From assembly GCA_949879855.1 (NCBI GenBank), contig CATLBX010000003.1, forward strand, positions 1-41,067: a stretch of 41,067 nucleotides of DNA, in the 5' to 3' direction. The translations under genes and the position numbers were made by a program. Below the pieces are notes generated by a model. That model was given only the letters and a program-made list of their open reading frames with translations, was not told where the DNA came from and did not search any database. Source of the DNA: an uncultured Coriobacteriia bacterium (GTDB lineage Bacteria > Actinomycetota > Coriobacteriia > Coriobacteriales > QAMH01). This document shows, piece by piece, positions 18,001-37,484 of this stretch (positions within the stretch are counted from its first letter, which is position 1; each line of letters begins with the position of its first letter).

Positions 18001-19776
18001 CAGGGCGCGATCGTGCTCGTGCGCGACAAGAACGGAAACGCCGTCCAGGAGACCGACGAGTACGGCAACCCGCTGTTCAATGCCGATGGCCTGCCCATCT
18101 TCAAGTACGCCTACCAGCCGGCCATCGACGCGTTCGGCACGCTGCTCGCCCGCGGCATCGAGTTCGACAACCTCAACGGCGACGGCAGCACGCACCTGCG
18201 CTTCTACTACATCGCCAACAACAACACGAGATACTACGTCGAGCGCTGGGTCATCACCGGTGACGGCACGCTCGTGCCGCTCAAGGCCGACGGCACCGTT
18301 CCCCATGACGCGAACGGCAACCTGCTCGTCCACGACGCGAAGTGGGCCGAGGGCCAGCGCCTCGTCTACGTCGGCTTCACCGGCGAGATGGCGTGGGCGG
18401 ACGGCGTCGACGCGAGCGTGACCTACCGTCATCTCGATAACATCCCGGTCCTGGGCTACACCTACCTCCCGCACGGCCAGAGCGTGACAATCGGGGGACG
18501 TACCTTCACGACCCAGGCGCGCGCGATGATCGCGGGCGACGGCTCGACGGTCCTGGTCCTCTACTACGTCTTCGACGAGTCGACCCTCGTCCTCGACCCC
18601 GCCAACGGCCTCTGGACCAACACCGATGGCAAGGAGGGGACAGACCCCGCATGGTCGACTGGCAACCTGGGGACAGACCCCGACGCGCCGCGCAAGACGC
18701 TCGAGCAGCTCATCGCCGAGCAGATCGCCGCCGCTACCAAGGTGCTCTATGCCGCCGGCGGCAACATCGCCCTCGACGATCCGCGTCGCCTGCCCATCAC
18801 GCTCAAGTACGGCACCGATGCCCAGATCATGCTCCCGACCGCCGACCAGCTCCTGCGCAACGGCTACGTTCTCATCGGCTTCGTCGACGGCAACGGCAGG
18901 CAGTACGCGCCCGGCTACATCTTCACGATGCCCAGCTCCAGCATCAGGCTCATGGCCCTGTGGGCTCCCATCATCTACACCATCACCTTCGACAAGAACG
19001 ATGACGTGGCGACCGGCGCCGCGCCCGAGCAGCGCTACGAGTACGGCTCGGCGGGGACGCGCCTTGACGACGTCGATTTCGAGCGCCGCAACGGAACGCT
19101 CCTCGGATGGGCGTTCTCGCCCGACGCGGCCAGGCCCGACTTCACCGTCGGCCAGCTGATGTCGGCCCTGCTCGAGAGCGGCGTGCTCGGCCTCGTGAGG
19201 GGCGATGGCATCGACGATCCCGCGACGGCCATGTACCTGCTCGCGGCCATGGCCGGCAATGGCGGCAACGCCATCAAGCTGTATGCGATCTGGGACGTCG
19301 AGCGCCACGTCGCGGGCCTCGAGGGCTTCGAGCCCGATGTCGATGACTTCGGCCACTTCGTCACCGAAGGCGAGTATCCGGGAGGCAAGATCACGATTGA
19401 TTCGGATGGCGTCGAGCCGGGCTTCACGCTCTCGCCCGATGACGTCCTGATCGAGCTCAACCCGGACTACTACATCAAGGGCTGGAACGTGATTCGCGAT
19501 GGCGTGACCACTTACATCGAGGGCGCCGACGCGATCTTCTCGGTGACGATGGACAGTGACGTGATTTTCGCCCCGGTCTTTGGCAACTATGCCGAGGAGG
19601 AGGCCGAGGAAAGGGCACGTTACCTCGCGCAGCTCGCTGCGTACGGGACGCCCAGGACCGGTGATGACGTCATGGGCACGATGGGTCACGAGGCCGCGGT
19701 CGGGCTGCTGGCACTCCTCATTCTGGTTCTGCTCATCCGCCGTCGCAGGCAAGAGACGCCAAGCCGGGGACGATAG
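1..19776 (+). CDS. Giant cell-wall-anchored surface protein/adhesin, 5'-truncated by the window edge; Listeria-Bacteroides (InlB B-type) repeats alternating with MucBP-like modules
   Basis: Frame 1 is open from nt 1. Codons 1-7 (PGRGWYL) already continue the repeat signature, so the GTG at 22 is not the true start. The stop is TAG 19774-19776. By eye there are roughly 25-30 copies of the signature (R)PGY.(L/F).GW...DG....Y..G......LYA(V/T)W. Between them are paired ~90-130 aa modules that begin ..Y.V..(Y/W)...GDG and end DGS.VL.LYY. The C-terminus has a TPRTG motif, a hydrophobic helix and an RRRR tail. Confidence 0.9.
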   Translation, partial: PGRGWYLVGWDVTYVTGDGSVNTQTGLDVNAPATFQILGPTTFLARWKEAIIVNYLPGDHAADGAFPDPAVENETIFTHVAPLGKFPAYANSIGALPEGAVDADGASWYFAGWEIHWKLRGQEGYVGDAVSIFQVDLSQVADLTVVFPGKAEGDERVYDIDVIALWAPADYYVIFDANEPEGADAHTGIMPPKQGFLFDSKIALTNNAYVVSGYTFAGWNTKADGTGTSYADGAVTGILESFSDWFSTDPEKTLKLFAQWTAKTYDVTVDLRDGAPGTLSAGTSGVKDFIAQTITLGTASHVVYVATETYGVGVESAINLVVNKGYRLAGWEWSAVKDDGTTVTGTVTVDDGDANFGLGKLTVLGTVTAYAVFEQLSSVSYLPGDHGNWTGTATTGGTGTFFDDIRIGSAVPTFGTGNDALLVDVPGLGKLPGADDDSNWLFNGWRGSDGKVYANYVIPTDVLVTAGGMTFTALWVAKDQTLTLNANGGAFANGTADTITAIAKTDVTLPGTTDVVLTGWILDGWSLAAGGAILYAPGETIKMPTAPTTLFAHWKQDYVEVSYEVKADGSNYYGHITGPAGAGNGIVWVEQTVSDPRGTYVPAYADPSYDKLVNIKGTQSLSAVSGDALDPANLSNMLYAGPFTLTANAFEGYRFVRWVDEDGNEVSTNPSLLVTRDTLTGRYKAHTYYAIFAELESVTIDYTVSDSNVVWVDFATEAVPPVSGNPRTNVAHVSAGYVIEGWYDAAGNKVGSGDSFTPSRGADGMYVAGSYVVRVIPKTDTPFVIEYWLQDTTGAFVKDAASTVNGTGSTDLVLTINADGTISGVPADGVITLPAGNLILSFAGHSFSASASTLTGAIAADGSLALKLYYTNNTLTNPTIIYNAGTGGSVTLGSEQIDITVTPIPSPIGSTPVAAPGYQFSHWQVGDDPDMQLNIGISSLFTPPTPDGGWLEKTVYAYTAIFIELPSITINYVAGTGGSVSLGSESVRPATGTPAGSLATANSGYAFDHWEDEFGNVVMYDATNKAPAHLVPPRNADGVFVATTYTAIFVALPVDYTVQHYKVDRYGNVTLVRTDTDQAYAGTTVTATPIDTTADGLWAGYTYAPGHSGEVSVGVVMVNPTLVLKLYYTANSDTPYVVYRYQLDGNGVFTQLPSESYTGYTDDTVTTTPNVPVGYQLVADGTYASGILAGIPTQLATQLAGMFTGDGKLVLIHVFEAVKVQYVVNYWKIPGSALTQGDPLSFKAPAAPSQTFYDYTGVRVTAVPPSIPGYTYVLPSAHREMYPSVDTGVVLGDGTLVLNLYFEADYHTLTLVPNTGAGAGTWAPGYSAFGSTLLRSETETTLPTTTHLRNPGYTFKGWATENGGAVVHAPGATIAIGTADITLYAVWEANTDTPYTIERYQLNADGTITKLPNLTGTGTTGESVTTVPVAPDGYQVPTTDYITGLWDGNPVYRIDEILTGVITGDGKLKLVHVFIPVAGNYVVKIFKVDGMGNAIQVDVDGNELAAGDVLLEGYKHAGAVGSNVIVDSASATDTPGFIYHAYASNPPRGYSYLGDAVSFVVNGKTYLTIASGVIGDQTLELVIYFEPNTYELTYVTGDPTDPDAGKWVGAGDSSPATQFGYELNVPANGTLAVVTRTGYELLGWTTVATYSVRADGTIVAAGTDGLDVKEIVNARGQEAIDVATWLATLAAGTYYAAGDTFKMPANDMSLYAVWTPTLTNYYVNRYSVAKDGSVTLIDSVTRTAPTHTTAAATDADKEIVGQFYRVPGGAEPSSIDSVLITPDGLAMIKLYFDVTADTEYTVEFLRYTGTGLIEPINAFKANATSAGGAAVYDETATANPSGADTNMLLFRGYANTRIYVDQNGTDTQLIYYNNCLAKIAAAAITGYAYDATFSTVIDGKTYTTMATGIIGAGGALKLTLVFAAQQNDLIYDVNAAEDAAKGNAGWVISDQSPKPAPRTGSTVTLPDATTLYRFGYVFGGWNTMADGSGDTYAAGASFVTGNTAQTLYAVWTPGNADYFIDYYKVRGDGTVELYDSVILTGITERTVTVTDEQKNYRIPEGYAYAAGHSGEVLSGVVTGWSGNRAGDTSGALHLKLYYEPTNSTEYRVVRWAATGDGKLVAVDANGNLNFDIALEPTADGRLVQLDAKGNPVAWLNADGTQYVITSTEHRQVFDADGNPVRQPVIGEDGNPVKDESGNVVYEDVYEDVTVYNVQYRYWSLLPNGSVVPLDVAGIVDATFGAKFLDGNGCITSTLDGVTYHLPAFATPFLIVHANGKADAMANAAATTDEVTANPNVNAHDNVAIQGFEFLVHGSTTRLGDAAETKVTTVAQGSIAADGSLVLTLYYYAVRSMLTFDPGTGADGSTVGSWFNGEDLSAEYMPNEVVTLPTGTNLRRPGYTLAGWTTIKNFVENMGTDPRFSIGSDGDSLVGVAMGQTAIDLQAWLATLGGQYFTTTFTMPRGATTLYPVWLPRNDTVYTVEYYKHRGDDTVVLDATVQYTGMTDTLAKAGLVSTGMVDGVAVDDVNRYGTAFYKLVDKDGNPVLTVTDKNGKVWTALLSFNIAADGSTVLKVIYEAQEIDYTVIWYKFTGNEAFVEAKTETRRGLVDGPVSVTDADLKVAFDGYKYYPGFSLRGQRELLSADIASDGSTILKIFYEAQDVTLFLDLGSFGAWSGQEHDADKYKADRTVKLSTLVERPGYDFIGWASIADGKDTKGSASITLADAMLKALNDAIAAGTTTLDANGNIVFAYDGSGITLILASGDGNYTLGAVNVTLYAVWKARNDSVYTVQHYRVTGDGTLKPVITDTYTGITDDPINVSAEHYDYVAGTGNTAGNVAAFQGYAYAPGFSKVIGGQTLAEIAAGTILADGSLVLKLYYEAIDQSITLNTGAGAWNGSENFYNATWNADKTQGVDNTVKTETTLTVPSRDSASRPGYTLVGWTTITTYDIVGGKITAGSRYNIADATGQTARDVVAWLESLNAALAANPITGGTDPNAGRQYFACGTSFVLPAGGATLIAVWQANTNTTYTVEHHKLVMDAAGNVVDTIVLTENLTGITDEQVTGIAQTYAGYTFVANGQTAYPGQAYVTFAQGTIAGNGSLVLKLYYRANTNTKYTVERWIASADGKQLTKVDEKVLTGTTDTSVTPGSTNPLGYTLDNSFVPSTISGTGAWPNAAIPTAIIAGDGTTRIIQFYVPIDVLYTVEFYRYTGDGKVLPFNGFEASAGKNYAEFIAGGSVPVFIAGTSTGAATNVIKGWGKTSSTLSVDRPAGISASAGFTYAHLNLSAAENANFIGYTYDEAFEQVIGGVTYKTIAQGVILADGSLVLKLFYVPETLSVTYNTGSASTTVTFQKNHTSESTFKLPLETTEGPVVDRAGYTLVGWTVASHYTGSGTAESPFALAAANAAGAKSISAATGYEAQRLAAWLATLGTDPDFATHWGQTLTPDLAAQMGKTYYAQGSSFKIGVLSMNLYAVWTPTGTTEYTADIYKIKGDGTMELVGTKTYTNGVADEDTNTLAKLPAQSSADVYDKSLDTEFGLAGYRWVASTEDGQTIDAGMPANTIAHAIVSANGTTKLIFIFRAIEVEFQVKRYRVDGDGNIIEVDVDGNDITDDATAKRFTHKGLTDANVNVTATADDMAGTDASGFKGGWYYFIDNLDNVGMVTALDGSLIAAFTYDATYAGNLSTGVIAGDGSLVLKLFYLPGNFTFALDPGAGTWGTDLFDAAQTQEGTLETTTSIWYRHYGASTTITLPTASELTREGYVLAGWMVGNDVENAMRFDVLGPVITYTMPVGEVMLRPIWTGLETAYMVYHVKVRGDGTLEYYIGSNKVAAGTGEIVRGTTGLTAQVTANSYAGYEAIADLVSYTYVGADGISHTVTTAANVLIEWGGAFDGVNKGKTAVYIYYKPLVVKYTVEHWAISGDGTLYAIDADGNLLRDANGNLVASPNAVRGEHEGYSDAHIYVLGSVPADAVAGTYTTYSPWSIAGYEYVLGTIASINGKGPWTDGMLTSGIYVAPDGTLVLKLYYVAKNLTLTYDPGANGSITAGGNQGTDPVDVTHRADHTFKLPAATDEKLTVSRPGYVLKGWTTLMSYGVAADGSIVSADTAGAIVKLIADAKGAEAEAVIAWLEKLGTDPQGRPYYYLNGATFLMPTANETLYAVWTPRSDIVYTVEHWLITGDGTFSPLDKNGNVIRDANGALVTGTPNTSADASDTTNAAYRVTYNNGKSDVVFDLDAIGGYTRTVAGYTYLLNNASFTIAGATGTTYAVKTISADGKTVFYLFYRANENTIRFEVGSLGTIDGGTLDATENVNFITQKHYTDDSFDLADVPTPTRPGYDFLGWTIADKKGTDPINDAMGYTAQQIVTWLEAQNAGKGTYLKLFFKSGTNFTYLTPTGDIILRAVWTPQLVDYTINRWKVTGNGDKVELDSVTYKGYADTEVRFDAAKTEYKDGITYLKVDVPTGYRFLAAGTSEIYTGTNKLTQSFRTDAYGNVLPNGTAKFTLWYLPKTFKLELELGTLGTWNDTTTGTNTGTLKTVEYDAESVHEMLGYLSASRPGYTLVGWSSSDFSALKGEASQAKWLELAASVVGADWVRVTTVLKSDATGTSLTGYTYAYIANSYENIKYMYTMGLAGVKFYAVWRANDDTVYYVDHVRWEGNSTAKTTITEEFRGMTDKNYTATPFNTMLADPRFNTSFTGYGYNGTDPKPSTATKAVTGDGTMRITLNYFAQKLNLTLESTGGTWSTTWNPEHLTESSFNLPTNADIKRPGYTLVGWSTTNPDDGLTGNIKGLASQVKAGQLAAITGNDTANGGANWITVATTSDGKTYVFVTPGYKMPTRGQTLYAVWYANNDTKYAVERWVVSGDGVRYALKADGTLERDANGLLVTSDKADSAHSLSYVGTTDEEAWADAIDGSIVYRTNDTLLTITGYAYAADGETIVAKDGVVTIGGQTLKTDARATITGDGKMTLVLYFKPLQFTLDFYIGATSTPNLSATPARATLYADQTYTLPTSTVTRSGYTLKGWTNSQYASGVDAATIISDLKGIKSQNAYTAVSASTGRDAVTGKVFTAVTSGGQTLYIMPTGNVTLYATWRANDDTQYLVERWVVSGDGTRYAVTSDGKLIRDTNGKLVTSSTADASHVVKHVGITDEEAWADANVAGTSYRNDDSALTFAGYAFAANGETVIAKDGATAFTTIARKVITGDGKMVLVLYYKPKLNTITFNFGSGTSTGAPATMQVYTDQTVELSADAERTGYDLVGWSNVSTYSVKVDGATTATTVNVGTSKGLASQAAADAAKANTKRTSDKGAAFTAVTIGGQTLYIMPTDASITLYATWRAKSDTVFYVDRYKVTGDGVVVPIDANGKDLAALVSLRFTGVTDETATAGAKSGPKPWNTAAYGTLAGYYTIANGTSDRVMLKDGSGYVVMTTISAGVIAGDGSLHLVVYYFPLADRVLDLDVGDGTWEPGKESQYSGNKHATESSFTLPTNADVKRPGYTLVGWAIDKNGLMAAGKDTAKGAASQKSYLTLAAGKTGYIADGGAEWIAVISGYDASTFTYTFIGADDVIYVMPTNAKVMLRAVWRANDNTPYYVSRWGINGDGIAFPFKQDGTVDMNGDQIVIHDDPAWIKANYVVHYGITDEIAWADANVDGVSYRNADNIEVNGYRYLPTDDPAFDSIGGSLNTMARAVIKADGSMVLMLYYNAKDNITYSVYHVRVTGDGTVKNLVKQEFMKKNNSYVTVDNLDYNGLDDSRFLGYEYVDSIVINGVTYYSHIAGNVYDGLILYRYYKAIYDEGDKGIHLELNPGMGIWVNTGESTPSMIPGTSNSSHDTFAAETTITLPGADQLYRPGYEFVGWSDMPDGADAKGNYSVITSDHLMSVDPETGQYTDVLRALIMSLLSQRMEDAENRAIEVDGDNPTYKFLDHLYIAPDGKFLVPTKTIRLHAIWRARTDTKYTVSHWWVDQYGVAHEIEDSRLNLEGMTDENVYGSKLDDNHEAVAGYTYVKEYQGAIVLVRDKNGNAVQETDEYGNPLFNADGLPIFKYAYQPAIDAFGTLLARGIEFDNLNGDGSTHLRFYYIANNNTRYYVERWVITGDGTLVPLKADGTVPHDANGNLLVHDAKWAEGQRLVYVGFTGEMAWADGVDASVTYRHLDNIPVLGYTYLPHGQSVTIGGRTFTTQARAMIAGDGSTVLVLYYVFDESTLVLDPANGLWTNTDGKEGTDPAWSTGNLGTDPDAPRKTLEQLIAEQIAAATKVLYAAGGNIALDDPRRLPITLKYGTDAQIMLPTADQLLRNGYVLIGFVDGNGRQYAPGYIFTMPSSSIRLMALWAPIIYTITFDKNDDVATGAAPEQRYEYGSAGTRLDDVDFERRNGTLLGWAFSPDAARPDFTVGQLMSALLESGVLGLVRGDGIDDPATAMYLLAAMAGNGGNAIKLYAIWDVERHVAGLEGFEPDVDDFGHFVTEGEYPGGKITIDSDGVEPGFTLSPDDVLIELNPDYYIKGWNVIRDGVTTYIEGADAIFSVTMDSDVIFAPVFGNYAEEEAEERARYLAQLAAYGTPRTGDDVMGTMGHEAAVGLLALLILVLLIRRRRQETPSRGR
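3163..18960 (+). repeat. Intragenic protein-level super-repeat: one LB repeat followed by 1-2 MucBP-like modules, about 16-17 units of variable length
   Basis: The junction LYAVW(T/R/E)(A/P)N(T/D)DT.Y.V(E/D)(R/H)(Y/W) recurs, for example near 4150, 5140, 6030, 7400, 8330, 9050, 10410, 12470, 13195, 13900, 14520, 15255, 15985, 16725 and 17815. Units are diverged (neighbouring units about 50-60% aa identity by eye), so this is not a recent perfect DNA tandem repeat. Confidence 0.7.
7239..18681 (+). repeat. 16 in-frame copies of the GGGGACAGACCCC mini-hairpin element inside the giant CDS, plus 2 degenerate copies
   Basis: Core start positions are 7239, 8554, 8964, 9697(-), 10281, 10310, 11884(-), 12138, 12384, 13032, 14501, 14830, 15205, 15931, 18636 and 18669. 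Degenerate copies are at 11141 and 18493. They translate as GTDP or GGQTL in forward orientation and GSVP in reverse. I saw none in nt 1-7238. Confidence 0.85.
19645..19773 (+). other. Candidate sortase sorting signal (LPXTG-variant TPRTG, TM helix, positively charged tail)
   Basis: The C-terminal sequence is ..AAYG-TPRTG-DDVMGTMGHE-AAVGLLALLILVLLI-RRRRQETPSRGR. TPRTG is encoded at 19648-19662. Confidence 0.55.
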
Positions 19777-19778: not shown

Positions 19779-19938
19779 GGGGGACAGACCCTCGGCAGGC
19801 GGGGGACAGACCCCCGCTTCGTCCGCCGGTGAAAGAATGGGGACAGACCCCCGATTGCCAGCTCCCATATCCGCCGGTGAAAGAATGGGGACAGACCCCC
19901 GCTTCGTCCGCCGGTGAAAGAATGGGGACAGACCCCCC
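19779..19938 (+). repeat. Cluster of 5 mini-hairpin elements immediately after the giant gene stop codon
   Basis: Cores are at 19779, 19801, 19839, 19887 and 19924. The last three share the composite unit ccgccggtgaaagaatGGGGACAGACCCCCgcttcg, with 48- and 37-nt spacing. Confidence 0.9.
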
Positions 19939-20769: not shown

Positions 20770-20829
20770 GGGGGGGTCTGTCCCCCTATTGCCACCTGCA
20801 GCCGAGTTCTTGATCGGGGGTCTGTCCCC
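20770..20829 (-). repeat. Two reverse-orientation mini-hairpin elements upstream of the RAYT-like gene
   Basis: GGGGGGGTCTGTCCCCC lies at 20770-20786 and GGGGGTCTGTCCCC at 20816-20829. Their reverse complements read ggtggcaataGGGGGACAGACCCCC and ggtgctaatgaGGGGACAGACCCCC. Confidence 0.9.
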
Positions 20830-20998: not shown

Positions 20999-21796
20999 GT
21001 GCCGCGCCAGCCACGCAGACAATCGTCAACCGGGTATTACCACATCACGAACCGTGGCGTTGGCAAAGCGCGGGTCTTTAACGACGGCAACGATCACTCG
21101 TTCTTCATAGATTGCCTGCGGCTTGCACAGCGGGTCTGTCGCTTCAAGGTTCTCGCATATTGCATAATGACCACGCATTTCCATATCGTCATCAAGTGCG
21201 AGGGCGCCGTTCCAACATCCCTTTTCCAGAGCATAGGAGCACGGTTTTCGGCCTATTACCACAAGAGGCACAAATGCTCTGGGCAAATATTCCAGGGCCG
21301 CTTTCGCAGCGAGGCAATCGAGACGGACAGACACCTTCTCTCTGCGATTCGCTATGTATGGCGCAATCCCGTCAAGGCCCACCTCTGTTCCTGCTTGGCC
21401 GCCTATCCGTGGAGTAGCTACAATTTTCTGGGCAAGTCGGGTGGCTTAATCGACGACGAGCTTCTTTGCAGCTTCATGAGCGCCGATGAGTGGAGGGCCT
21501 TCGCGTTGCAGGAAGTGGACGACCGCCATCTCGAGCCTTTTTCCCTGCGACTGTCGGACAGTTCCGCTCGGAAGCTGGTTCGTGAAGGGTGCCGGCAGTT
21601 CGGCGGTGTGCCAAGGGATGCTCTCGAGAAACCAGAGTGCCCTCCTGCACTTGCCGTGTGCCTGGATGCGGGGATGACCGTGGCGCAAATTGCCAGAATC
21701 CTGAACATCACCGCAACCGGTATGTATCGCGCATTGCGGAAATGGGGCCGGCAGGTTCCGAGGGCATGCACCCTCGAGGCGTCGAGCAGTCCGTAA
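20999..21796 (+). mobile_element. Y1/HUH tyrosine transposase of the IS200-like superfamily, RAYT-like (REP-associated), with a C-terminal HTH region
   Basis: The start is GTG 20999, preceded by GGAAAGGAGG. The HUH motif is H60-F-H62 (TTHFHIVI). The block GQIFQGRFRS is present, and the catalytic-Tyr motif is IR-Y119-VWRNPVKA...YPWSSY. The C-terminal region MTVAQIARILNITATGMYRALRKW looks like an HTH. No TnpB/IS605 orfB partner is present. Confidence 0.8.
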
Positions 21797-23417: not shown

Positions 23418-24248
23418 ATGTCCGTCCAAACTCCAAACGAGAAGTACGACGCCCTGGTCATCCGCCTTCGTTCCCTCAAGAGCGTGGCGGTTGCCTTTTC
23501 GGGCGGCGTTGACTCCGCGTTGCTGCTGCATGCCGCGCACGAGGCGCTTGGCGATAGGACGGTTGCGATTACGGCGCGATCGCGCCTTTTTCCGCAACGC
23601 GAACACGACGAAGCCGTTGCGTTTTGCAGTGACCGCGACATCCCGCACGTCATCGTCGACACGCACGAGCTCGAAGACGAGGCGTTCCGGCAAAATCCGC
23701 CCAATCGCTGCTATCTCTGCAAAACGGGGCTACTGCGCGTCATCGTCGATGTTGCGACCGGGCGCGGGGCCGAACATGTCGTCGAGGGGTCGAACACTGA
23801 CGACGAGAGCGACTACCGTCCAGGTGCCCAGGCGATACTCGAGCAGGGGGTGATGAGCCCGCTCAAAGACGCCGGTCTCTCAAAGCGCGAGATACGCGAT
23901 TTGTCGCGAGAGAAGGGCCTTCCCACCTGGAACAAGCAGTCGTTCGCGTGTCTTGCGTCGCGTTTTGCGTTCGGCGAGGTCATTAGCGAGGAGCGCCTCG
24001 ACATGATCGACGCAGCGGAGCAGGTTCTTCTCGAAAGGGGAATTCGGCAAGTTCGCGTGCGCTTCCATGGGCCAATTGCGCGCATCGAGGTGCAGCCGGA
24101 CGATTTCGCGCGTCTTGTCGATCCGGATGTTCGAGAGGATGTCACCCGAAACATCAGGGCGCTTGGATTCAAGTACGTGACGCTTGACCTTGAAGGCTAC
24201 CAGACAGGCAGCATGAACATGACAATTGGGGGACAGACCCCCAATTAA
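23418..24248 (+). CDS. PP-loop ATP-utilising enzyme, LarE-like (sulfur transferase family)
   Basis: The SGGVDS PP-loop is present (AVAFSGGVDSALLL), as are RCYLCK and the LarE-type cysteine motif SFACLASRF. The last 8 codons (NMTIGGQTPN) are encoded by a copy of the repeat element. Confidence 0.75.
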   Translation: MSVQTPNEKYDALVIRLRSLKSVAVAFSGGVDSALLLHAAHEALGDRTVAITARSRLFPQREHDEAVAFCSDRDIPHVIVDTHELEDEAFRQNPPNRCYLCKTGLLRVIVDVATGRGAEHVVEGSNTDDESDYRPGAQAILEQGVMSPLKDAGLSKREIRDLSREKGLPTWNKQSFACLASRFAFGEVISEERLDMIDAAEQVLLERGIRQVRVRFHGPIARIEVQPDDFARLVDPDVREDVTRNIRALGFKYVTLDLEGYQTGSMNMTIGGQTPN

Positions 24249-24903: not shown

Positions 24904-25028
24904 GGGGGGACAGACCCCCCTCTTCGTGCCGCCCCCCATCCCGCGCACCTCCAAGCGCCTGCTCGACTTGGAGGCCGAGTAATCGCGCACTGCGATTCTT
25001 CCTGCGTAACAATATGGGGACAGACCCC
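24904..25028 (+). repeat. Two forward mini-hairpin elements
   Basis: ggtgacaaaGGGGGGACAGACCCCCC lies at 24904-24920 and has 6-bp arms. cgtaacaatatGGGGACAGACCCC lies at 25016-25028. Confidence 0.9.
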
Positions 25029-26472: not shown

Positions 26473-26511
26473 CGCGCCGAAGGGGATCCGCCTCCTTCGG
26501 CGCCTTCTTTT
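26473..26511 (+). terminator. Rho-independent terminator after tig
   Basis: A 10-bp stem (GCGCCGAAGG / CCTTCGGCGC) is followed by cttcTTTTT. Confidence 0.65.
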
Positions 26512-27450: not shown

Positions 27451-27684
27451 GGTTTCCTCTCCTCTTCATCGGATGCAGGGCCGCCAGACTCTGGCGAGTG
27501 CGCCCTCATCACCTATGCGAGAGCGACCCGTATGAAATTCCGGCGTCCATCAGATGGTAGTTCCCAGCTCAGCGCCTGCATATCGTATGAAAGGTATGAG
27601 ATTGGTCGCGAACTATCAAACTCCCCGCTCGATGACTTGCTGCTCACCGAGACGATAGGGTGTGCATCGATGATGGGTAACGGA

Positions 27685-27747
27685 GGGTCTGTCCCCGGAT
27701 TACCAACATCATCCCATGGCGAAGGTCGTGACGAAGGGTCTGTCCCC
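27685..27747 (-). repeat. Two reverse-orientation mini-hairpin elements in the divergent intergenic region
   Basis: GGGTCTGTCCCC occurs at 27685-27696 and at 27736-27747. Confidence 0.9.
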
Positions 27748-27778
27748 TTTTTCCCAGAGAGACATTCAGGAGGAAATC

Positions 27779-29050
27779 GTGATTCGAAACGTCGATGGTG
27801 ATTCCGGCGCAAGCGAAGGTGCGCGGAGGTACCAGAATCCGGTGCTCGTGGGCATCGTCTTGCTCGTATCCGGAATATCGGTGGCGATGATCCAGTACAA
27901 GGTCCCCACCATCATGACGAATCTCATGGGCATCTTCTCGATGGATGCGGCGACGGCCTCGTGGCTCATGTCGATTTTCACGCTCGTGAGCATCTTCGTC
28001 GCGTTGCCCGCGGGTGCCCTTGCACAGCGTTTCGGAGCCAGGCGGATGCTCGTCGTCGCATGCGGCATCGCCATCCTCGGTTCGCTCGTCGGCCTTGTCT
28101 CCGAAACGAGCCCGATGCTCATCGTTTCGCGGGCGATCGAAGGCGCCGCGCTTACCATCCTCACGACATGCGGACCGATTATCGTCCAGCAGAACGTGAG
28201 TCCCGAGAAGGTCGGCACCTCGATGGGCATCTGGGGCATCTGGGGATGTCTCGGGTCCACCGTCGCGGCCGTTCTCACGCCGACCGTTTTCGGCATGTGG
28301 GGATTTGACGGTCTCTGGATCGCGTTTGCCGTGGTCAGCGGCGTTGCGGCTGTCCTCGTCCTGGTCTTTATCCGCAAACCCCCGTCCGCCCCTGCAGCGC
28401 CCGAGGGTCTGTCCCCCAATCGCCATGCGCCCCAGGGGTCTGTCCCCGCAATGTCAGATGGGGCAACGATTGTCGAGAAGCCGCGCTATCGCGACATGTT
28501 CTCCAGGGACATGTTCCTGTTCTTCGGGGCCTTCGTCGTCTACAACATCTGCATGCTCGCGATTCTGGCGTTCGTCCCCACGATTCTGCAGATGCAGGGC
28601 TTCGATCCGACGCTCTCGGGCATCATCAGCACGGCGCCCATGCTGCTCTCGATCATATCATCACCGCTCTTCGGAGTTGTCTCCGACAAGATCGGCCGCA
28701 ACAAGCCACTGCTGATCATCGCCATGCTCGTCATGGGCCCCTGCACGTTTTTGCTCTACACGCAGACTGGGCCGTTGCTCTGGGTGGGCGTCTTTGCGAT
28801 GGGGCTGCTCGGCATGGGCGGCATCGGTCAGTATCTCTCGGGATTCACGAAGCTGCTGCCGAGCCCCGACCTCGCGTCGGTGGGCATGGGAGTGCTTGTC
28901 ACGTTCCAAGGCGTCGGTCAGTTCCTCGGCACGTTTTTCGTGCAGATGCTCCTGGGGCCGCAGCTGACCGAATGGTGGTTTGCCGGCATGGTGCTCATGT
29001 TCCTCGGCTTCGTCGGCACGGCGCTCATCGCCCTGTGCAGGCTACGGTGA
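27779..29050 (+). CDS. MFS transporter
   Basis: I prefer the GTG at 27779, which lies 5 nt after AGGAGGA. The ATG at 27716 has no RBS and would translate through a repeat copy. The protein has 12 predicted hydrophobic segments and a central loop. The stop TGA 29048-29050 lies inside the GGTGACAA extension of the next repeat copy. Confidence 0.8.
   Translation: MIRNVDGDSGASEGARRYQNPVLVGIVLLVSGISVAMIQYKVPTIMTNLMGIFSMDAATASWLMSIFTLVSIFVALPAGALAQRFGARRMLVVACGIAILGSLVGLVSETSPMLIVSRAIEGAALTILTTCGPIIVQQNVSPEKVGTSMGIWGIWGCLGSTVAAVLTPTVFGMWGFDGLWIAFAVVSGVAAVLVLVFIRKPPSAPAAPEGLSPNRHAPQGSVPAMSDGATIVEKPRYRDMFSRDMFLFFGAFVVYNICMLAILAFVPTILQMQGFDPTLSGIISTAPMLLSIISSPLFGVVSDKIGRNKPLLIIAMLVMGPCTFLLYTQTGPLLWVGVFAMGLLGMGGIGQYLSGFTKLLPSPDLASVGMGVLVTFQGVGQFLGTFFVQMLLGPQLTEWWFAGMVLMFLGFVGTALIALCRLR
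28405..28447 (-). repeat. Two reverse-orientation mini-hairpin elements in frame within the MFS central loop
   Basis: GGGTCTGTCCCCC lies at 28405-28417 and GGGGTCTGTCCCC at 28435-28447. They encode ..PEGLSPNRHAPQGSVPAMS.. between the two six-helix halves. Confidence 0.85.
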
Positions 29051-29056
29051 CAACGA

Positions 29057-29190
29057 GGGGACAGACCCCTGGCTGGCCGGACTGACAATGAGGGGACAGA
29101 CCCTCAGTTGGTTAGGCTCCTAGTTAACGGCGCGTGATAAGAAGGGGACAGACCCCCGACTAAACGGACTGGCAATGAGGGGACAGACCC
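29057..29190 (+). repeat. Cluster of 4 forward mini-hairpin elements
   Basis: Cores are at 29057, 29092, 29144 and 29179, with the extensions ggtgacaacga-, actgacaatga-, cgtgataagaa- and actggcaatga-. Confidence 0.9.
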
Positions 29191-29436
29191 TCGGATCGCC
29201 CCCCGATTGCCTCGTTCGCATTTAGACGCTTCTCACCATCCTCTCACCTGCGCGTTTGTCGCACATATCACATGCGTCATACTTTTTATACGATGGTTTC
29301 GCCTTCCCTCAGACGATATATTGAAACCGCAAGTAGGGGGTTGTGTCGATGCATCATGCGCACTGTGCCTCCCGCGGTCGCGGGGAGTCGCAATGCCGTC
29401 GCGCTGGCCATGCCCTTTATCAAAACGCCACTCTCC

Positions 29437-31058: not shown

Positions 31059-31267
31059 TGACAATCGGGGGACAGACCCTCACGCGTCATCTCTTCGCAT
31101 CATGCTGACAGCCGAGGGACAGACCCCGTCATGCCGTCCCTCGCATCCCGGTTGACAATCGGGGGACAGACCCCCACGCGTCATCTCTTCGCATCATGCT
31201 GACAATCGGGGGACAGACCCCGTCGTGTCGTCCCTCGCATCCCGGTTGACAATCGGGGGACAGACCC
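31059..31267 (+). repeat. Higher-order tandem repeat (about 94-nt unit, about 2.3 copies), each unit containing two mini-hairpin elements
   Basis: Cores are at 31067, 31116, 31161, 31208 and 31255. The unit is ccggTTGACAATCGGGGGACAGACCCyCACGCGTCATCTCTTCGCATCATGCTGACAryCGrGGGACAGACCCCGTCrTGyCGTCCCTCGCATC. Confidence 0.9.
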
Positions 31268-31618: not shown

Positions 31619-32857
31619 ATGTCTGATAAAGCACTGGACAAGTCCAAGTGTATAGACGGAAGCTACGGCTGGGTAGTCGTGCTGTTCACCATGTTGGTCG
31701 GCTTCGTGCCCGGCTCCAACATGGCGAAGGCGATTTCGCTCGCGCCAATCGTCTGCATGAACTTCCAGATCAACGAGGCCACGTTCGGCCTGATCGTCGC
31801 GTCTTTCTACATTATGGGCTTCATCATGGCGTTCCCCACCACGGGCCTCGTCAACAAGCTCGGCATGAAGGGTTCCGTCGCTATTGCCGTCGGCTGCGGC
31901 ATCATTGGCTCCATCATGGGTGCCATGGCCGGCACGAACCTCACGGTCTTCGTCATCAGCCGCGTCGTCGAGGGTGCATCCTTCGGCATCATGGGCGTCG
32001 TGGGCGCATCGTCCATCGGCCCCTGGTTCTCGCCCAAGAAGCGCTCGCTCCCGCTGTCCATCTGGTCCATGTGGGTCGCCGTCTGCATGTGCGTCTGCCC
32101 GATTCTCTTTGGCTGGCTCAACGAGTCCATGGGCGTTGACATGGCGGGCATCTGGTGGGGCACCGCCGTGTACGACCTCGTCGTCGGCATCCTGTTCATC
32201 CTGTTCTACCGTCGTCCGGCCGACCTCGACGCCGTCGAGAACGCCGAGGATCCCACCGGCACCAAGAAGGCGAGCATCTCGCGCGCCCTCAAGAGCCCGA
32301 TGCTCTGGGCACTCGCCCTCATCTTCCTGTTCGACGAGGCCGCCTTCATGGCCATCAACGGCTTCATCGTCCAGTACCTCACCACGCAGCTTGATGCGTC
32401 GCTCGTCCTGGCAAACGCCATCTTCTCGCTGTTCGGCCTCATGGGCGCTCTGACGCCGCCCATCTCCGGTTGGATCACGCAGAAGTGGAACAACCACCGC
32501 TGGGTGCTGCTCGTCGGCCTCTTCATAGCGGTCATCTACACGGCCCTGGTCTTCCAGCTGCAAGACCCGATGCTGTACTACCCGCTGTCCATCCTCGCCG
32601 GCATCGTCGGCGGCGCGGTCCCGTCCATCATCTGGCAGTTCACGCCCAACACCGTCGAGGACGCCGACATTCCGGCGGCCAACGCCTTCATGGCGTTCAC
32701 CCAGAACATCGGCATGACGATCGGTGCCCTCATCATCGGCAACGCCATCGTCATGTGGGGTTGGGGCATGGGTTCGCTCATCGGCATGGTGCCGTTGTAC
32801 ATCATCTGCCTCATCATCTACTTCGCCTTCGGCGTTCAGAAGAAGCTCAAGCTCTAG
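31619..32857 (+). CDS. MFS transporter
   Basis: ATG 31619 follows GAGGAGGAG. The 412-aa protein has about 12 hydrophobic helices. The longer ORF start at 31505 lacks an RBS and is Arg/Gly-rich. Confidence 0.8.
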   Translation: MSDKALDKSKCIDGSYGWVVVLFTMLVGFVPGSNMAKAISLAPIVCMNFQINEATFGLIVASFYIMGFIMAFPTTGLVNKLGMKGSVAIAVGCGIIGSIMGAMAGTNLTVFVISRVVEGASFGIMGVVGASSIGPWFSPKKRSLPLSIWSMWVAVCMCVCPILFGWLNESMGVDMAGIWWGTAVYDLVVGILFILFYRRPADLDAVENAEDPTGTKKASISRALKSPMLWALALIFLFDEAAFMAINGFIVQYLTTQLDASLVLANAIFSLFGLMGALTPPISGWITQKWNNHRWVLLVGLFIAVIYTALVFQLQDPMLYYPLSILAGIVGGAVPSIIWQFTPNTVEDADIPAANAFMAFTQNIGMTIGALIIGNAIVMWGWGMGSLIGMVPLYIICLIIYFAFGVQKKLKL

Positions 32858-33450: not shown

Positions 33451-33558
33451 AGCCAGGGCAAGGTGCCGGTTCGCGCCGGCGGGAGTGTCCTTGCCAGACG
33501 ACTGGATCACGAACGCAAAGTGCAATGCAGGTTGAGAGAGAAGAGGAAAGGAAAGAGC

Positions 33559-35898
33559 ATGAAGATTTTCAAAGGTCAGGGCACTGCCGATCTTGGCAAG
33601 CCATGGCGCTTCGAAGAAGACGGCCTCACCGTCACCCGTGGCTGCGCATGGTCTCCCCCGGGATGCCACCCCACCGGATGCGGCATCAAGACCTATGTGA
33701 ATTCCAACGGCGAGCTCGTGCGCGTCGAAGGTGACGAGAACCATCCCATCACCAACGGCCGCCTCTGCGTCCGCTGCCTGACCATCCGCGATTACGTCTA
33801 TAACCCCGACCGTGTGCTCTACCCCATGAAGCGCGCCCGCGAGGACCGTGGCAAGAACAAGTGGGAGCGCATCACCTGGGACGAGGCCTACGACACCATC
33901 GCCGAGAAGGTCAAGTACTTCAAGGACAAGTACGGTGCCGAGTCCATCCTGGTCATGGGTGGCACCGGCCGCGAGGGTGGCCCCATGCTTCCGGCCTACG
34001 CCCATGCATGCCTGGGTACTCCCAACGCCTGCTACACGCAGTCCGGCTACTCCTGCTACATCCCGCGCGTCGCGGGTACCACCTACGTCATGGGCGCCAC
34101 CTATCCCGAGATGGACTACGCGGGCGGCCTACCCGGACGCTATGACGACCCGATGTTCAAGCTTCCCGAGCTCATCGTCTTCTGGGGCAAGGAGCCCCTG
34201 CCGTCCAATGGCGACGGTCTGTTCGGCCACGCTGCCATCGACATGATGCGCCGCGGCTCCAAGCTCATGTCCATCGACCCGCGCGTCAACTGGGTATCGA
34301 CCCGCGCCGACTGGCATCTGCGCCTGCGTCCCGGCACCGACGCCGCCCTCGGCATGGCCATGCTCAACGTGATCATCGAGGAGGACCTCTACGACCACGA
34401 CTTCGTGGACAAGTGGTGCTACGGCTTCGACCAGCTCGCCGAGCGCGTCAAGACCATGCCCGCCGAGAAGGCCGCCGAGATCTGCGGTCTCGACGCCGGT
34501 GAGATCCGCGAGGCCGCCCGCGTCTACGCCGCGGCCAAGCCCGCCCAGATCGCCTGGGGTCTGGCCATCGACCAGAAGTCCAACGGCGTCCAGGCCGGTC
34601 ACTGCATCATGGCCCTCGAGGCCATCACGGGCAACATCGACGTGCCTGGCGGCCAGCTCATCGGTGACGTCAACGACGGTCTCGAGCTCGGCTTCGGCTG
34701 GAACAACCTCGGCCCGGAGCTCCAGAGCAAGATCCTCGGCATCAAGGAGTACCCGGCCTACGTCGGCCTCGTCCTCAACGCGCAGTGCGACATGGTGCTC
34801 GACGCGCTCGAGGCGGGCGACGACGCCAAGTACTACCCGTTCAAGATGGGCGTCTTCGAGGACACGAACTTCCTGGCCGGCACCTGCGCCGCCCAGCCCA
34901 AGCGCTGGCATGACGCCATGGTCAAGAACCTCGAGTGGTGCTTCGGTATCGACGTGTGGATGACCCCGACGATTCAGGCCACCTGCGAGATCTTCCTCCC
35001 GCTGTCCTCGACCGTCGAGCATGACACCGTCGTGTACACGCACTATGGTGCCTCGCCGATCATGGCCGGTGCCGTCAACAAGTCCATCACCGTGGGCGAT
35101 TGCAAGGGCGACTGCGAGATCTTCTACGAGCTCGGCCTGCGCTGCATGCCCATCAACTTCGAGAAGTACAAGGACTACTACGACTTCCTGGCCGACTATC
35201 GCCTCGCCTACAAGAGGACCTTCGAGGAGCTACGCGAGGAGGTCGTGCACCAGAAGACCGAGATGTGCGGTTACTACAAGTACGAGTCCGGCCGCCTGCG
35301 TCCCGACGGCATGCCCGGCTTCAACACGCCCACCGGCCGCGTCGAGCTCTACTCGACGATGTTCCGCCAGTTCGGCGAGGATCCGCTGCCGTACTACGAG
35401 GAGCCGCAGTTCTCGCCGGTCTCCACACCCGACAAGATGGAGGAGTATCCCTTCGTCCTCACCACGGGTGCCCGCACCTACTGCTACTTCCATTCCGAGG
35501 GCAAGCAGATTCCGTACCTGCGCGAGATGAACCCCGATCCGCTGATCGAGATCAATCCCGAGGACGCCCTCAAGCACGGCATCGCCGACGGCCAGTGGGT
35601 CGAGGTCGCGAGCCCGTTTGGCAAGTGTGTCCTCAAGGCCAAGGTCTCCCAGATCGTGAAGCCGGGCGTCGTGCACGCGCAGCACGGCTTCTGGTTCCCC
35701 GAGAAGGATCCCGAGGAGCCCAGCCTGTACGAGGTGTGGCGTTCCAACATCAACGAGCGTATCCCGCACTTCATGGTGGGCAAGCTCGGATTCGGCGCGC
35801 CGTTCAAGTGCCTCATCTGCAGCGTGAAGCCGGTGTCGGAGAACTACGACACCGACATGATGGAGGTTTGGGACCACTTCGGAAAGTTGGTGATCTAG
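33559..35898 (+). CDS. Molybdopterin (bis-MGD) oxidoreductase catalytic subunit, acetylene-hydratase-like clade, no signal peptide
   Basis: ATG 33559 follows GAGGAAAGGAAAGAG. The N-terminal 4-Cys FS0 motif is C-x6-C-x4-C-x28-C (GCAWSPPGCHPTGCG...GRLCVRC). MGD-binding blocks are present: GGTGREGG, IDPRVNW and LRPGTDAAL. A C-terminal molydop-binding block reads PFVLTTGAR..YFHSE. There is no RR twin-arginine motif. Confidence 0.85.
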   Translation: MKIFKGQGTADLGKPWRFEEDGLTVTRGCAWSPPGCHPTGCGIKTYVNSNGELVRVEGDENHPITNGRLCVRCLTIRDYVYNPDRVLYPMKRAREDRGKNKWERITWDEAYDTIAEKVKYFKDKYGAESILVMGGTGREGGPMLPAYAHACLGTPNACYTQSGYSCYIPRVAGTTYVMGATYPEMDYAGGLPGRYDDPMFKLPELIVFWGKEPLPSNGDGLFGHAAIDMMRRGSKLMSIDPRVNWVSTRADWHLRLRPGTDAALGMAMLNVIIEEDLYDHDFVDKWCYGFDQLAERVKTMPAEKAAEICGLDAGEIREAARVYAAAKPAQIAWGLAIDQKSNGVQAGHCIMALEAITGNIDVPGGQLIGDVNDGLELGFGWNNLGPELQSKILGIKEYPAYVGLVLNAQCDMVLDALEAGDDAKYYPFKMGVFEDTNFLAGTCAAQPKRWHDAMVKNLEWCFGIDVWMTPTIQATCEIFLPLSSTVEHDTVVYTHYGASPIMAGAVNKSITVGDCKGDCEIFYELGLRCMPINFEKYKDYYDFLADYRLAYKRTFEELREEVVHQKTEMCGYYKYESGRLRPDGMPGFNTPTGRVELYSTMFRQFGEDPLPYYEEPQFSPVSTPDKMEEYPFVLTTGARTYCYFHSEGKQIPYLREMNPDPLIEINPEDALKHGIADGQWVEVASPFGKCVLKAKVSQIVKPGVVHAQHGFWFPEKDPEEPSLYEVWRSNINERIPHFMVGKLGFGAPFKCLICSVKPVSENYDTDMMEVWDHFGKLVI

Positions 35899-36246
35899 AT
35901 GACGGCCTACGGTCTGCTTATCGATTACGAGTTCTGCACGGGCTGCCAGTCTTGCGAGGTCGCGTGCAAGGAGATTCACAACATCCCCGTGGGGCAGTGG
36001 GGCATCCGCGTGCTTGACGATGGTCCCTGGGAGTGCTCGGACGGCAAGTTCAACTGGAACAAGATTCCGACCCCGACGCGCCTGTGCGACCTGTGCGTCG
36101 AGCGCACGGACAAGGGCCAGCAGCCCTTCTGCGTGCATCACTGCCTGGCCGGCGTCATGCAGTGGGGCACGGTCGAGGACCTTGCCAAGGAGCTCGAGGA
36201 GAAGCCCAACCAGGTGCTTTTCGTGCCCAAGCCCTACCAGTACTAG
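35899..36246 (+). CDS. 4Fe-4S ferredoxin-type small subunit
   Basis: The ATG abuts the upstream stop (TAGATG). The protein carries CTGCQSCEVAC plus CDLC...CVHHC cysteine clusters. It is 115 aa long. Confidence 0.8.
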   Translation: MTAYGLLIDYEFCTGCQSCEVACKEIHNIPVGQWGIRVLDDGPWECSDGKFNWNKIPTPTRLCDLCVERTDKGQQPFCVHHCLAGVMQWGTVEDLAKELEEKPNQVLFVPKPYQY

Positions 36247-36287
36247 CGGGAAGACGGCGTCTCGACCGAGGCGCGCGGGTGACAGGC

Positions 36288-36412
36288 GGGGGACAGACCC
36301 TCACGCATCACGAACGACGCGGTTGGCAAGAAGGGGACAGACCCTTTCACGAGAAAGCGGGGGACAGACCCCTTCGCGCCAACCGCAGGTGAGAAAGAGG
36401 GGACAGACCCCC
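36288..36412 (+). repeat. Cluster of 4 forward mini-hairpin elements
   Basis: Cores are at 36288, 36333, 36359 and 36399. Confidence 0.9.
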
Positions 36413-36449
36413 GCGCGTCATCCGCGAAGCGAGCGAGGATGGAATTTCG

Positions 36450-37157
36450 ATGGACCAGCAGGCTCTGATGCAGCAAACCGAAGACAGGTGCGATAACTAC
36501 GCGATGCTCTCGCGCCTGTTCAGAAGCGAGCTCGACCGCGAGCTCATCGCCGATCTCGTCGAAAGCCCGGCCGCCGAGCCGACGGGCAACACGCACTTCG
36601 ACTCGGGCTACGCACGCCTCCGCTCGTACCTTGACGCCGTCGACGACCTTGATCGTGCCAAGTCGGCGCTAGCGATCGACTACTGCCTCGCGTTCCTCGG
36701 CTACGGGGTCGACCCCGAGAAGGCGGACGAGGCCGGCAGGAATGCCGCCTATCCGTACGAGTCGATCTACCGTACGGGCGCCAAGTCGCTCGGCGGCGAC
36801 CACTGCGCCGAGGTGTCCGACGTGTTCCGCTCCTGCATGTTCATGCCCACCCGCGACCGACTCATCGCCGAGGACCACATCGCGTGCGAGCTCGAGTTCA
36901 TGCAGTTCATGGCCAACGGCGAGCTCGTCGCCCTGCACGATGGCGAACTTGCGGTCGTGCGCGGGACGCAGAAGAAGGAGCTCGAGTTTCTCGAGGGCCA
37001 TCTGCTCGCGTGGGCGGAGAGCTTCAGGCAGGCGGTGGAGCAGTTCGCCGAGACGGACTTCTACGTCGGCTTGCTCGAGATGACGCAGGGCTGGCTTGAA
37101 CTGGACGCGGAGTACCTGCGCGAGGCATGCGCGGAAGAAGGGGAGGATGCATCATGA
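36450..37157 (+). CDS. TorD/DmsD/NarJ-family molybdoenzyme maturation chaperone
   Basis: Family hallmarks are present: YAMLSRLFRSELD near the N-terminus, and the AEDHIACELEFMQFM block (E.DH...ELEFM). Confidence 0.75.
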   Translation: MDQQALMQQTEDRCDNYAMLSRLFRSELDRELIADLVESPAAEPTGNTHFDSGYARLRSYLDAVDDLDRAKSALAIDYCLAFLGYGVDPEKADEAGRNAAYPYESIYRTGAKSLGGDHCAEVSDVFRSCMFMPTRDRLIAEDHIACELEFMQFMANGELVALHDGELAVVRGTQKKELEFLEGHLLAWAESFRQAVEQFAETDFYVGLLEMTQGWLELDAEYLREACAEEGEDAS

Positions 37158-37474
37158 CGACCGATCACGGCCCGGACGGGCGTAACTGGAACAAGAACGA
37201 GGTCGAGTATGACCTTGGCGTCGCCGGTCCCGGCCAGAGCATCGTCATCACCATCACCCGTTCCGTCGCGGTCAAGATCATGGACCACGACAGCTACGAG
37301 CTCTACAAGGCGGGCGAGGACTGCAAGGCCTTTTCAGGCCAGCTCACCTCGTCACCGTACCGGTTCAAGCTGCCGCGCGAGGCACGATGGCACGTGATCA
37401 TCAACCCCCACACCTATTCGGGCACCGCCGAATTCAACGTCCGTCTCATTGACGACGAGGTGCTCGACGGCTAG
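37154..37474 (+). CDS. DUF1883-like small protein
   Basis: The start overlaps the chaperone stop (ATGA at 37154-37157) and is preceded by GGGAGGA. The pattern YDLG..G.G..V.I......V.IMD...Y..YK.G....F.G....SPY.F.LP....WHVII matches my memory of DUF1883. Confidence 0.65.
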   Translation: MTTDHGPDGRNWNKNEVEYDLGVAGPGQSIVITITRSVAVKIMDHDSYELYKAGEDCKAFSGQLTSSPYRFKLPREARWHVIINPHTYSGTAEFNVRLIDDEVLDG

Positions 37475-37484
37475 GGGACGAAGC

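Follow-up and report, generated by a model that had tools for sequence, protein, structure and literature searches.

What brought two copies of one short repeat into the reading frame of a transporter gene, and on what terms does the gene keep them? The question is raised by a 41,067-nt stretch of DNA from an uncultured Coriobacteriia bacterium (the whole stretch is referred to below as the window), in which a gene of the major facilitator superfamily (MFS) carries a doublet of GGGTCTGTCCCC, the reverse complement of the core 12-mer GGGGACAGACCC of an abundant repeat. We compared the window with loci of related genomes, designated by L-numbers (L001, L015, L154 etc.); these loci, retrieved by searching with three proteins (MFS, MoeA and the transposase), were perfectly syntenic. 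The comparison led us to regard the doublet as probably a two-unit in-frame array of a genome-wide repeat, a member of the GGGGWSAS ‘TIR’ family tied to a TIRYT-type Y1/HUH transposase.

The two copies of the core occupy positions 28405-28416 and 28436-28447. The first-pass annotation of the window, made from the sequence alone, had reported two reverse-orientation in-frame copies at 28405-28447, and they were found there; the reverse orientation of the pair held, while the spacing, given as 30 nt, is 31 nt from start to start, with a core-to-core gap of 19 nt. Both copies fall within one open reading frame (ORF), 27716-29050, whose translation includes ...APAAPEGLSPNRHAPQGSVPAMSDG... and ...RKPPSAPAAPEGLSPNRHAPQGSVPAMSDGATIVEKPRYRD...; the copies are in different codon phases (GLSP and GSVP). 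The complete units lie on the minus strand. The first (28404-28425) has the form TGGCGA-ttg-GGGGACAGACCC-T and, when read in frame with the MFS protein, gives (P)EGLSPNR(H), and the second (28435-28456) has the form TGACAT-tgc-GGGGACAGACCC-C and encodes (P)QGSVPAMS.

The transporter gene itself (27779-29050, plus strand, 423 amino acids) likely begins at the GTG at 27779, 5 nt after an AGGAGG at 27768-27773; the longer ORF of 444 amino acids, starting from the ATG at 27716, would take in a repeat copy situated upstream. The protein matched the Pfam family MFS_1 over residues 50-406 (E-value 2.4e-45). The hydropathy profile displayed six hydrophobic segments (residues 43-219), a hydrophilic stretch (221-267) and six more hydrophobic segments (269-440), and the doublet is located at residues 230-246, just as the first-pass annotation had it, between the N- and C-terminal six-helix bundles. 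The loop that holds the doublet, between transmembrane helices 6 and 7 (TM6-TM7; 28376-28516, plus strand, residues 221-267 of the 444-residue ORF), was delimited by hydropathy, by the match to the N-domain of MFS structures in the PDB, which stops at residue 223, and by the loop lengths of orthologs. In the established MFS topology, the loops with motif A mark the cytoplasmic side. Since motif A-like signatures could be read from the sequence in the TM2-TM3 loop (GALAQRFGARR) and in the TM8-TM9 loop (GVVSDKIGRNK), the central loop is cytoplasmic. The second MFS gene of the window (31619-32857) had zero repeat copies, in agreement with the first-pass annotation. An independent contig from a rat-gut metagenome (Logan) was identical to the window over 27600-28968, and six or more assemblies, made independently in different studies, contained the doublet.

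Among the orthologs, the length of the central loop followed the number of repeat copies. The segment from GLWIA to LFF had 58-60 residues where there were no copies (L004/L019, L005/L020, L006 and L007), 72-78 residues where there were two (the window, L015, L021, L018 and L154, with spacings of 31, 43, 46, 46 and 37 nt), and 100 residues in L155, with four copies spaced by 30, 32 and 34 nt. Each copy in the loop adds about 7-10 residues; in sister genomes without the repeat family, the loop was 14-18 residues shorter and carried zero copies. Within the MFS gene, the copies were confined to this loop. The gene was a single open ORF in 12 of 12 genomes, and outside the loop the ratio of nonsynonymous to synonymous divergence (dN/dS) was 0.03-0.05, with dS up to 0.83 in comparison with L018 and 1.05 in comparison with L155; therefore, the gene is functional and under strong purifying selection. 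The first-pass reading stands, because the repeat-free orthologs do not have the same loop and the gene is not split at the doublet. We consider it confirmed that the doublet is real and in frame, and that a functional transporter carries it in the cytoplasmic loop between TM6 and TM7. At orthologous sites the loop cores remained perfect across dS of 0.8-1.05, whereas a neutral 12-mer would no longer be recognizable after so much divergence. We also observed partial duplications beside the loop copies: in L001, CAGGGGTCGTCT adjoins CAGGGGTCTGTC, and L003 has a duplicated GCAGCCGAGGGTC.

The doublet belongs to a family that is dense all over the window. We found 55 exact copies of the 12-mer and two copies with one mismatch, 47 on the plus strand and 10 on the minus strand, while 100 dinucleotide-preserving shuffles yielded a mean of 0.36 copies and a maximum of two. 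Alignment of all the copies defined a bipartite unit of about 22 nt, TGRCAA-N3-GGGGACAGACCC-Y. In the logo of 108 distinct copies, the conserved bases were T-9, G-8, R-7, C-6, A-5 and A-4, followed by three free bases and then the core, which is invariant; +12 was occupied by Y in 100% of the copies. The core together with Y makes a 13-nt imperfect palindrome, GGGG-ACAGA-CCCY. There are in effect no decayed copies of the core: two copies with two mismatches were observed compared to 5.6 expected by chance.

All the regions sampled had a density of about 1.4 copies per kb, with a strong preference for spacers. Given a plausible gene map of the window, the spacers had 36 copies in 4.7 kb (7.7 per kb), while coding DNA had 19 exact copies in 36.4 kb (0.52 per kb), 16 of the 19 in a giant ORF (22-19776). 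The 17 ordinary genes accounted for three copies (0.18 per kb): two make up the MFS doublet, and the third falls within the final six codons of larE. Within ORFs the 12-mer was read in four phases, as GTDP, GQTL, GSVP and GLSP. None of the 17 in-ORF copies in plus orientation was in the frame that reads the TGA of TGACAA (P about 0.001); the minus orientation, read on the strand of the gene, has a stop codon in no frame. In the spacers, the copies form arrays of direct repeats with a period of 22-50 nt. Out of about 30 neighboring pairs less than 100 nt apart, one was inverted (31019 minus and 31068 plus) and the rest were direct. Tandem duplication of whole periods was seen upstream of the second MFS gene (31068-31267, a 47-nt unit five times, one of them with the one-base core variant AGGGACAGACCC) and after the giant ORF, where the array at 19780-19935 contains 37-nt units at 19802-19935.

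The numbers of copies per spacer varied between genomes, and the orientation was conserved. In five spacers, three related genomes had 5/3/2, 3/3/1, 4/4/2, 4/2/3 and 5/4/5 copies. The arrays of close relatives differed by whole periods, with breakpoints inside the cores. For example, the array after the MFS stop (29057-29190, plus strand) has four copies in the window and two in L015, a 97%-related genome; a clean in-register indel of 87 nt, placed between cores, separates the two versions. Two minus-strand copies in the divergent spacer between the FKBP and MFS genes (27685-27747, starts at 27685 and 27736), just 5′ of the MFS start, were found in all repeat-bearing orthologous loci.

Copies inside the giant ORF had a different history. 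In L154, a full 23-nt unit replaces an unrelated sequence of the same length found in three other genomes, with orthologous flanks on both sides; at the protein level IVINGVTYY is changed into VVIGGQTLY. A similar same-length replacement was seen in the giant ORF of L018. One site in this ORF differs between the window and L154 by two synonymous changes, with GSVP encoded in both, and other gains changed the protein by +5 or -6 residues. In constrained sequence, then, copies appear to arise by patch replacement that changes the net length little, and in loops and spacers as length-adding arrays. The first-pass annotation had taken the doublet as evidence that the element enters ORFs and survives only where the protein tolerates it. 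The tolerance part agrees with the contrast between the spacers and the ordinary genes, while entry as the sole route does not agree with the giant-ORF copies that were gained with no length change or with a change of +5 or -6 residues.

The giant ORF (22-19776 in the window, 1-8894 in L154) encodes at least 6,584 amino acids, and 15,059 in the L154 record, with Listeria-Bacteroides repeat domains. Its 16 in-frame copies are read as GTDP, GQTL or GSVP, and several of these coincide with a conserved strand of the domain, ..TLYA.W. The giant ORF was missing upstream of o217 in the repeat-free genomes.

A candidate enzyme for the family, overlooked in the first-pass annotation, is encoded 6.7 kb upstream of the doublet. 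Between o217, a small membrane-protein ORF, and moeA, the window has a gene (20999-21796, plus strand) for a RAYT-like Y1/HUH transposase of 265 amino acids, with the HUH histidines H60 and H62, the catalytic tyrosine Y119 in YVWRNPV, and a C-terminal tail resembling a helix-turn-helix (HTH). The protein matched Pfam PF01797 (Y1_Tnp) with an E-value of 1.6e-5 (25.5 bits, with the cut-off at 23) and NCBIfam NF047646 (REP-associated tyrosine transposase) with an E-value of 9.2e-21 (74.3 bits, just under the cut-off of 80). In an alignment of 18 homologs, Y119 and P124 (of the Y..NP motif), Y136, W138 and S140 (of YPWSS) were invariant, while H60, H62 and N123 were nearly so. A profile of the homologs matched the E. 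coli TnpArep structure 4ER8 (E-value 7e-6) with both catalytic motifs aligned, while a single-sequence phmmer search of the transposase against the PDB gave no match. In the tail, there was a match to HTH_7 (E-value 4.4e-4; 20.8 bits, below the cut-off of 23.8), and the alignment of the 18 homologs showed a conserved HTH-like pattern, G.T..QIAR...G. The homologs had 245-285 amino acids; some carried MarR_2, HTH_23 or Bac_DnaA_C domains (PF12802, PF13384 and PF08299), and a few were named RayT by their sources. In these features the protein matches the TIRYT class, or subclass 2.1 of TnpA-REP-like proteins. Two minus-strand copies (20774-20829) are situated 170-225 nt 5′ of the gene, beyond the o217 terminator. 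A search for inverted copies bracketing the gene found no copy in the 43-nt gap to moeA, and the first downstream copies, in plus orientation, are 1.4 kb off, past moeA. Two other homologs were also found near repeats. In a member of Planctomycetota, GGGGACAGACCC overlaps the 5′ end of a gene coding for a homolog with 29% identity (L014, 4983-4994), and GGGACAGG occurs seven times in the 10-kb locus of a Clostridiaceae homolog (L013).

Repeat content differed sharply between genomes that have the transposase and genomes that lack it. The gene was present at the o217/moeA locus in eight genomes (the window, L015, L154, L018, L024, L155, L026 and L156), and these had 0.4-1.8 repeats per kb. L019 and L020 have a gap of 122-160 nt at the locus, and L016 and L017 also lack the gene there; these four genomes had 0-0.07 copies per kb, and their spacers were 30-330 nt shorter. 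The sequence of the repeat changed along with the enzyme. L026, with a transposase homolog 52% identical, had 16 copies of GGGGTCAGACCC with cACG upstream and zero copies of the window’s core. The fit to GGGGWSAS is GGGGACAG-ACCC in the window and six other genomes, and GGGGTCAG-ACCC in L026. Even at orthologous sites, the half-site was lineage-specific: TGACAA in the window, TGGCAAT in L154, and GRCACGAT in L155, where the base at +12 is always C. Both the presence of the family and its sequence variant thus track the presence and the sequence of the transposase. A mechanistic link between them is well supported by this comparison, and the support is correlative.

In a neighbor-joining tree of MoeA (a single gene, with no support values), the four repeat-free genomes make one clade nested among the repeat-bearing genomes, which is why the transposase and the repeats look ancestral and lost once. 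Because of the same nested position in this single-gene tree, the short MFS loop of the repeat-free genomes could be a secondary loss. The distant L006 and L007 have the short loop as well, and by that observation the short loop is the older state. The tree has to be read with recombination in mind: the second MFS protein of the window is 97% identical to those of L019 and L020 and only 83% identical to that of L018, while the neighboring genes show the reverse, which suggests recombination or transfer at the second MFS gene.

The following mechanism would fit the family. The transposase would act on single-stranded DNA at the core palindrome, with its HTH reading the TGRCAA half-site. Nicking and rejoining could add units beside the existing ones and trigger short-patch copying from other units, while recombination between direct copies would delete units. 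Selection would then retain only the in-frame outcomes at places where the protein tolerates extra or altered residues. Such a mechanism would account for the conserved sites and orientations of the arrays, for their variable copy number and spacing, and for the perfect cores. The invariance of the core across dS of about 1 suggests rewriting in place, and we prefer rewriting in place (concerted evolution) to insertion followed by decay because of the patch replacements, the lineage-specific half-sites and the perfect cores. In its strongest form, this idea says that the repeats are continually rewritten: a TIRYT-dependent nick would trigger short-patch copying that keeps thousands of sites, some of them in coding sequence, at a master sequence, which would shift with the transposase specificity. 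Conversion would turn near-matches within ORFs into full units, the net change in length being 0, +15 or -18 nt. We put this stronger form forward tentatively, as a possibility that has the odds against it.

Several points weigh against the transposase-linked array as the origin of the doublet. We know of no biochemical evidence for the TIRYT class of transposases. Known Y1 transposases recognize hairpins, while the unit is without a convincing one (a 4-bp stem and non-significant folds). Several of the gains inside ORFs were length-neutral, and a classical cut-and-paste insertion does not produce such gains; nor does simple selfish insertion with decay predict perfect cores across dS of 0.8-1.05. 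Inverted copies do not neatly bracket the transposase gene, with two copies upstream and the next past moeA. Since the transposase-less genomes form one clade, the presence/absence correlation between transposase and repeats rests on a single evolutionary event. Furthermore, the genomes are incomplete metagenome-assembled genomes (MAGs), and in the transposase-less ones a divergent transposase may lie elsewhere.

Some of these same observations favor a different explanation, in which the motif is maintained independently of the transposase, by molecular drive of the kind acting on uptake sequences (DUS/USS) or by selection as a binding site for a host protein, with the transposase a bystander. 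Most copies would then originate where they now stand, through mutation and short-patch recombination; the MFS loop would be a part of the protein able to encode them. The invariant 12-nt core with its deficit of two-mismatch copies, the density, and the perfect orthologous cores across dS of about 1 would all be expected, and so would the length-neutral gains in ORFs, including the site where two synonymous changes leave GSVP either way. The copy upstream of tig, conserved even in genomes without the transposase, points in the same direction. However, in the loop and in the spacers the extra length scales with the number of copies, and the copies form direct arrays with 22-50-nt periods; uptake sequences do not build such arrays. 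To our knowledge, sequence-specific DNA uptake is undescribed in Coriobacteriia. The strand bias (47 plus compared to 10 minus), the co-variation of both core and half-site with transposase divergence, and the fit of the core to the published TIRYT consensus GGGGWSAS (PMC3733652) also speak against the explanation. On balance we consider it unlikely, though it is the most serious of the competitors.

Less probable still is local amplification of a single copy or near-match in a variable loop, by slippage or unequal recombination instead of transposition of a ready-made doublet, with the transposase needed only for the origin of the first copy. The partial duplications that flank the loop copies in L001 and L003, the presence of two copies in some genomes and four in another at spacings of 30-46 nt, and the whole-period duplications in the spacers (47 nt five times; 37-nt units) are what such a process would leave. 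Lineage-specific half-sites on both copies of the loop and perfect cores are left unexplained by it. Local amplification is compatible with the transposase-linked array, and we would count it among the sub-mechanisms of that explanation sooner than among its competitors. Finally, one could see in GLSP and GSVP a Gly/Ser/Pro linker selected at the protein level, all the more so as Pro, Ser, Ala and Gly abound in the loop, or else dismiss the doublet as an assembly artifact or the gene as a pseudogene. The 12-mer is also present in spacers and in four reading phases, and is therefore a DNA-level feature; the independent assemblies together with the identical Logan contig speak against an artifact, and the intact ORF with its low dN/dS speaks against a pseudogene. 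These possibilities are effectively refuted.

The transposase-linked array, the reading we retain, has published parallels. TIRYTs are relatives of RAYT/TnpA-REP proteins with an extra C-terminal HTH, and their genes accompany repeats sharing GGGGWSAS, some of them dispersed as singles, dimers and clusters; where dimers of repetitive extragenic palindromic (REP) sequences fall inside ORFs, 20-30 residues are encoded by them (Di Nocera et al. 2013, PMC3733652). Subclass 2.1 TnpA-REP-like proteins with a C-terminal HTH were described by Quentin et al. (2018, PMC6006769), in the sole survey of this class, and the authors also cited the GGGGWSAS consensus; in Actinobacteridae they found only subclass 1.1, and they saw no REP-like sequences near subclass 2.1 genes. 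The system considered here resembles the TIRYT/TIRtron systems in its Y1/HUH protein, homologous to RAYT, longer, and with a predicted C-terminal HTH, in its core (GGGGACAG here and GGGGTCAG in L026), in the occurrence of the copies as singles, dimers and clusters, and in having one transposase gene found per genome, inherited at a fixed locus. It differs in its host, a gut bacterium of Coriobacteriia (Actinomycetota), outside the described hosts; in its density of about 1.4 per kb, while the published families are ‘moderately abundant’; in adjacent copies that are almost all direct; in having about one third of the copies in ORFs; and in a transposase gene that is not tightly bracketed by inverted copies.

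With the REP/REPIN-RAYT systems (Nunvar 2010; Bertels & Rainey 2011; Ton-Hoang 2012; Messing 2012), the family shares a single-copy, vertically inherited Y1 homolog alongside an abundant short repeat concentrated in spacers, the co-variation of repeat and transposase sequences, and the absence of repeats from the lineage that lost the transposase. Unlike those systems, it lacks a GTAG/GTRG tag, a stable hairpin and inverted doublets (REPINs/BIMEs); its unit is bipartite, about 22 nt long, and essentially without decayed cores. Also, classical REPs are extragenic, while here ORFs contain 19 of the 55 exact copies, and the giant ORF alone contains 16. Rickettsia palindromic elements, as Ogata and colleagues are said to have reported in 2000, lie in frame within functional genes. 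The doublet resembles these elements and the intragenic REPs (Di Nocera 2013) as a short in-frame repeat in a functional gene at a tolerated position, such repeats often being dimers or groups of 20-30 residues. The Rickettsia elements are palindromes of 100-150 nt with no known transposase, whereas here we see 22-nt units, arrays of zero, two or four copies in one loop, and same-length patch replacement. As for the DUS of Neisseria and the USS of Pasteurellaceae, the likeness is in an invariant core of 9-12 nt at about one per kb in coding and non-coding DNA, in the use of compatible frames and less constrained parts of proteins, and in the length-neutral gain of some ORF copies; the length-adding direct arrays, the strong strand bias, the bipartite unit and the link to a Y1 transposase set the present family apart. 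We know of no uptake machinery in these organisms.

Searches for further structure in the repeat gave negative results. The only stem found in the unit was the 4-bp GGGG/CCCY, and the z-scores of DNA folds, computed for single units and for the doublet, were from -1.8 to +0.4. Outward from positions -1/+13 in the 108 distinct copies, pairing of the flanks did not exceed that of shuffles, and there was no covariation beyond the core, the Y at +12 being its sole extension. The repeat logo had no GTAG/GTRG tag, and Rfam at gathering thresholds gave no match in the window. A role of the arrays as terminators was rejected, because the intrinsic terminators of tig (26474-26503) and o217 precede the arrays; wherever such terminators are visible, the arrays are placed after them. 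The GC skew is negative throughout the window and dominated by the giant ORF, and so is uninformative with respect to the leading strand. A full-text literature search for the 12-mer returned only unrelated primer matches. Scanning the GTDB genomes with a 14-base pattern gave mostly single chance matches among the matches listed. Among the same matches, AA-N3-GGGGACAGACCC occurred as inverted pairs about 40 nt apart in L035, L058, L069, L096, L055 and L103, assemblies of Betaproteobacteria, Rhodocyclaceae, Massilia, Clostridium and Enterobacteriaceae, Clostridia MAGs included. These pairs suggest that related REPIN-like doublets sharing the core exist in other phyla.

Other copies in the window deserve mention. 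A single plus-strand copy (25016-25027), 125 nt before tig, has a TAACAA half-site, and the block of sequence around it is conserved throughout the seven genomes aligned. It was the sole copy retained in the transposase-less genomes (L016 at 6992, L017 at 12717, L020 at 12724 and L019 at 12854), in one of them with a single mismatch, and it may be a co-opted copy or the founder copy. At the end of larE, a repeat unit (24229-24240) provides the last codons (...MTIGGQTPN*), and likewise in L015 and L154; the protein ends differently in L018 and in the repeat-free genomes. Repeat arrays occupy every spacer around the molybdopterin oxidoreductase operons (33463-40521). There are two such operons (catalytic subunit, 4Fe-4S subunit and NarJ-like chaperone) beside a membrane-anchored LuxR-type regulator and MFS genes, an arrangement which we take to be typical of Eggerthellaceae.

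The closest public matches to 27600-29300 (runs X1-X4) came from rat and mouse gut metagenomes, and the short-read contigs break at the repeat copies; for this reason, population-level indels are unreadable from the Logan contigs. In practice, the repeats break short-read assemblies and make ORF calls too long at both ends of genes, a point of importance for annotation of the present MAGs.

TIRYT-type repeat families and REP-like dimers inside genes are already known (PMC3733652). What is unusual here is the host, a member of Coriobacteriia, together with the density, the directness of the arrays and the indications that copies are rewritten in place. The finding links a dense repeat family of uncultured rodent-gut Coriobacteriia to RAYT-like transposases of a class that has been little studied. 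Since sister genomes that have the transposase can be compared gene by gene with those that lack it, they make a clean natural experiment that shows which protein sites tolerate the repeat, how in-frame arrays grow and shrink (zero, two or four copies), and how the core persists over a large divergence. If the repeats are indeed rewritten in place, this would be a case of genome-wide, enzyme-driven concerted evolution that also makes in-frame variation of length and sequence in loops and surface proteins, and it would bear on how REP-like sequences spread and persist.

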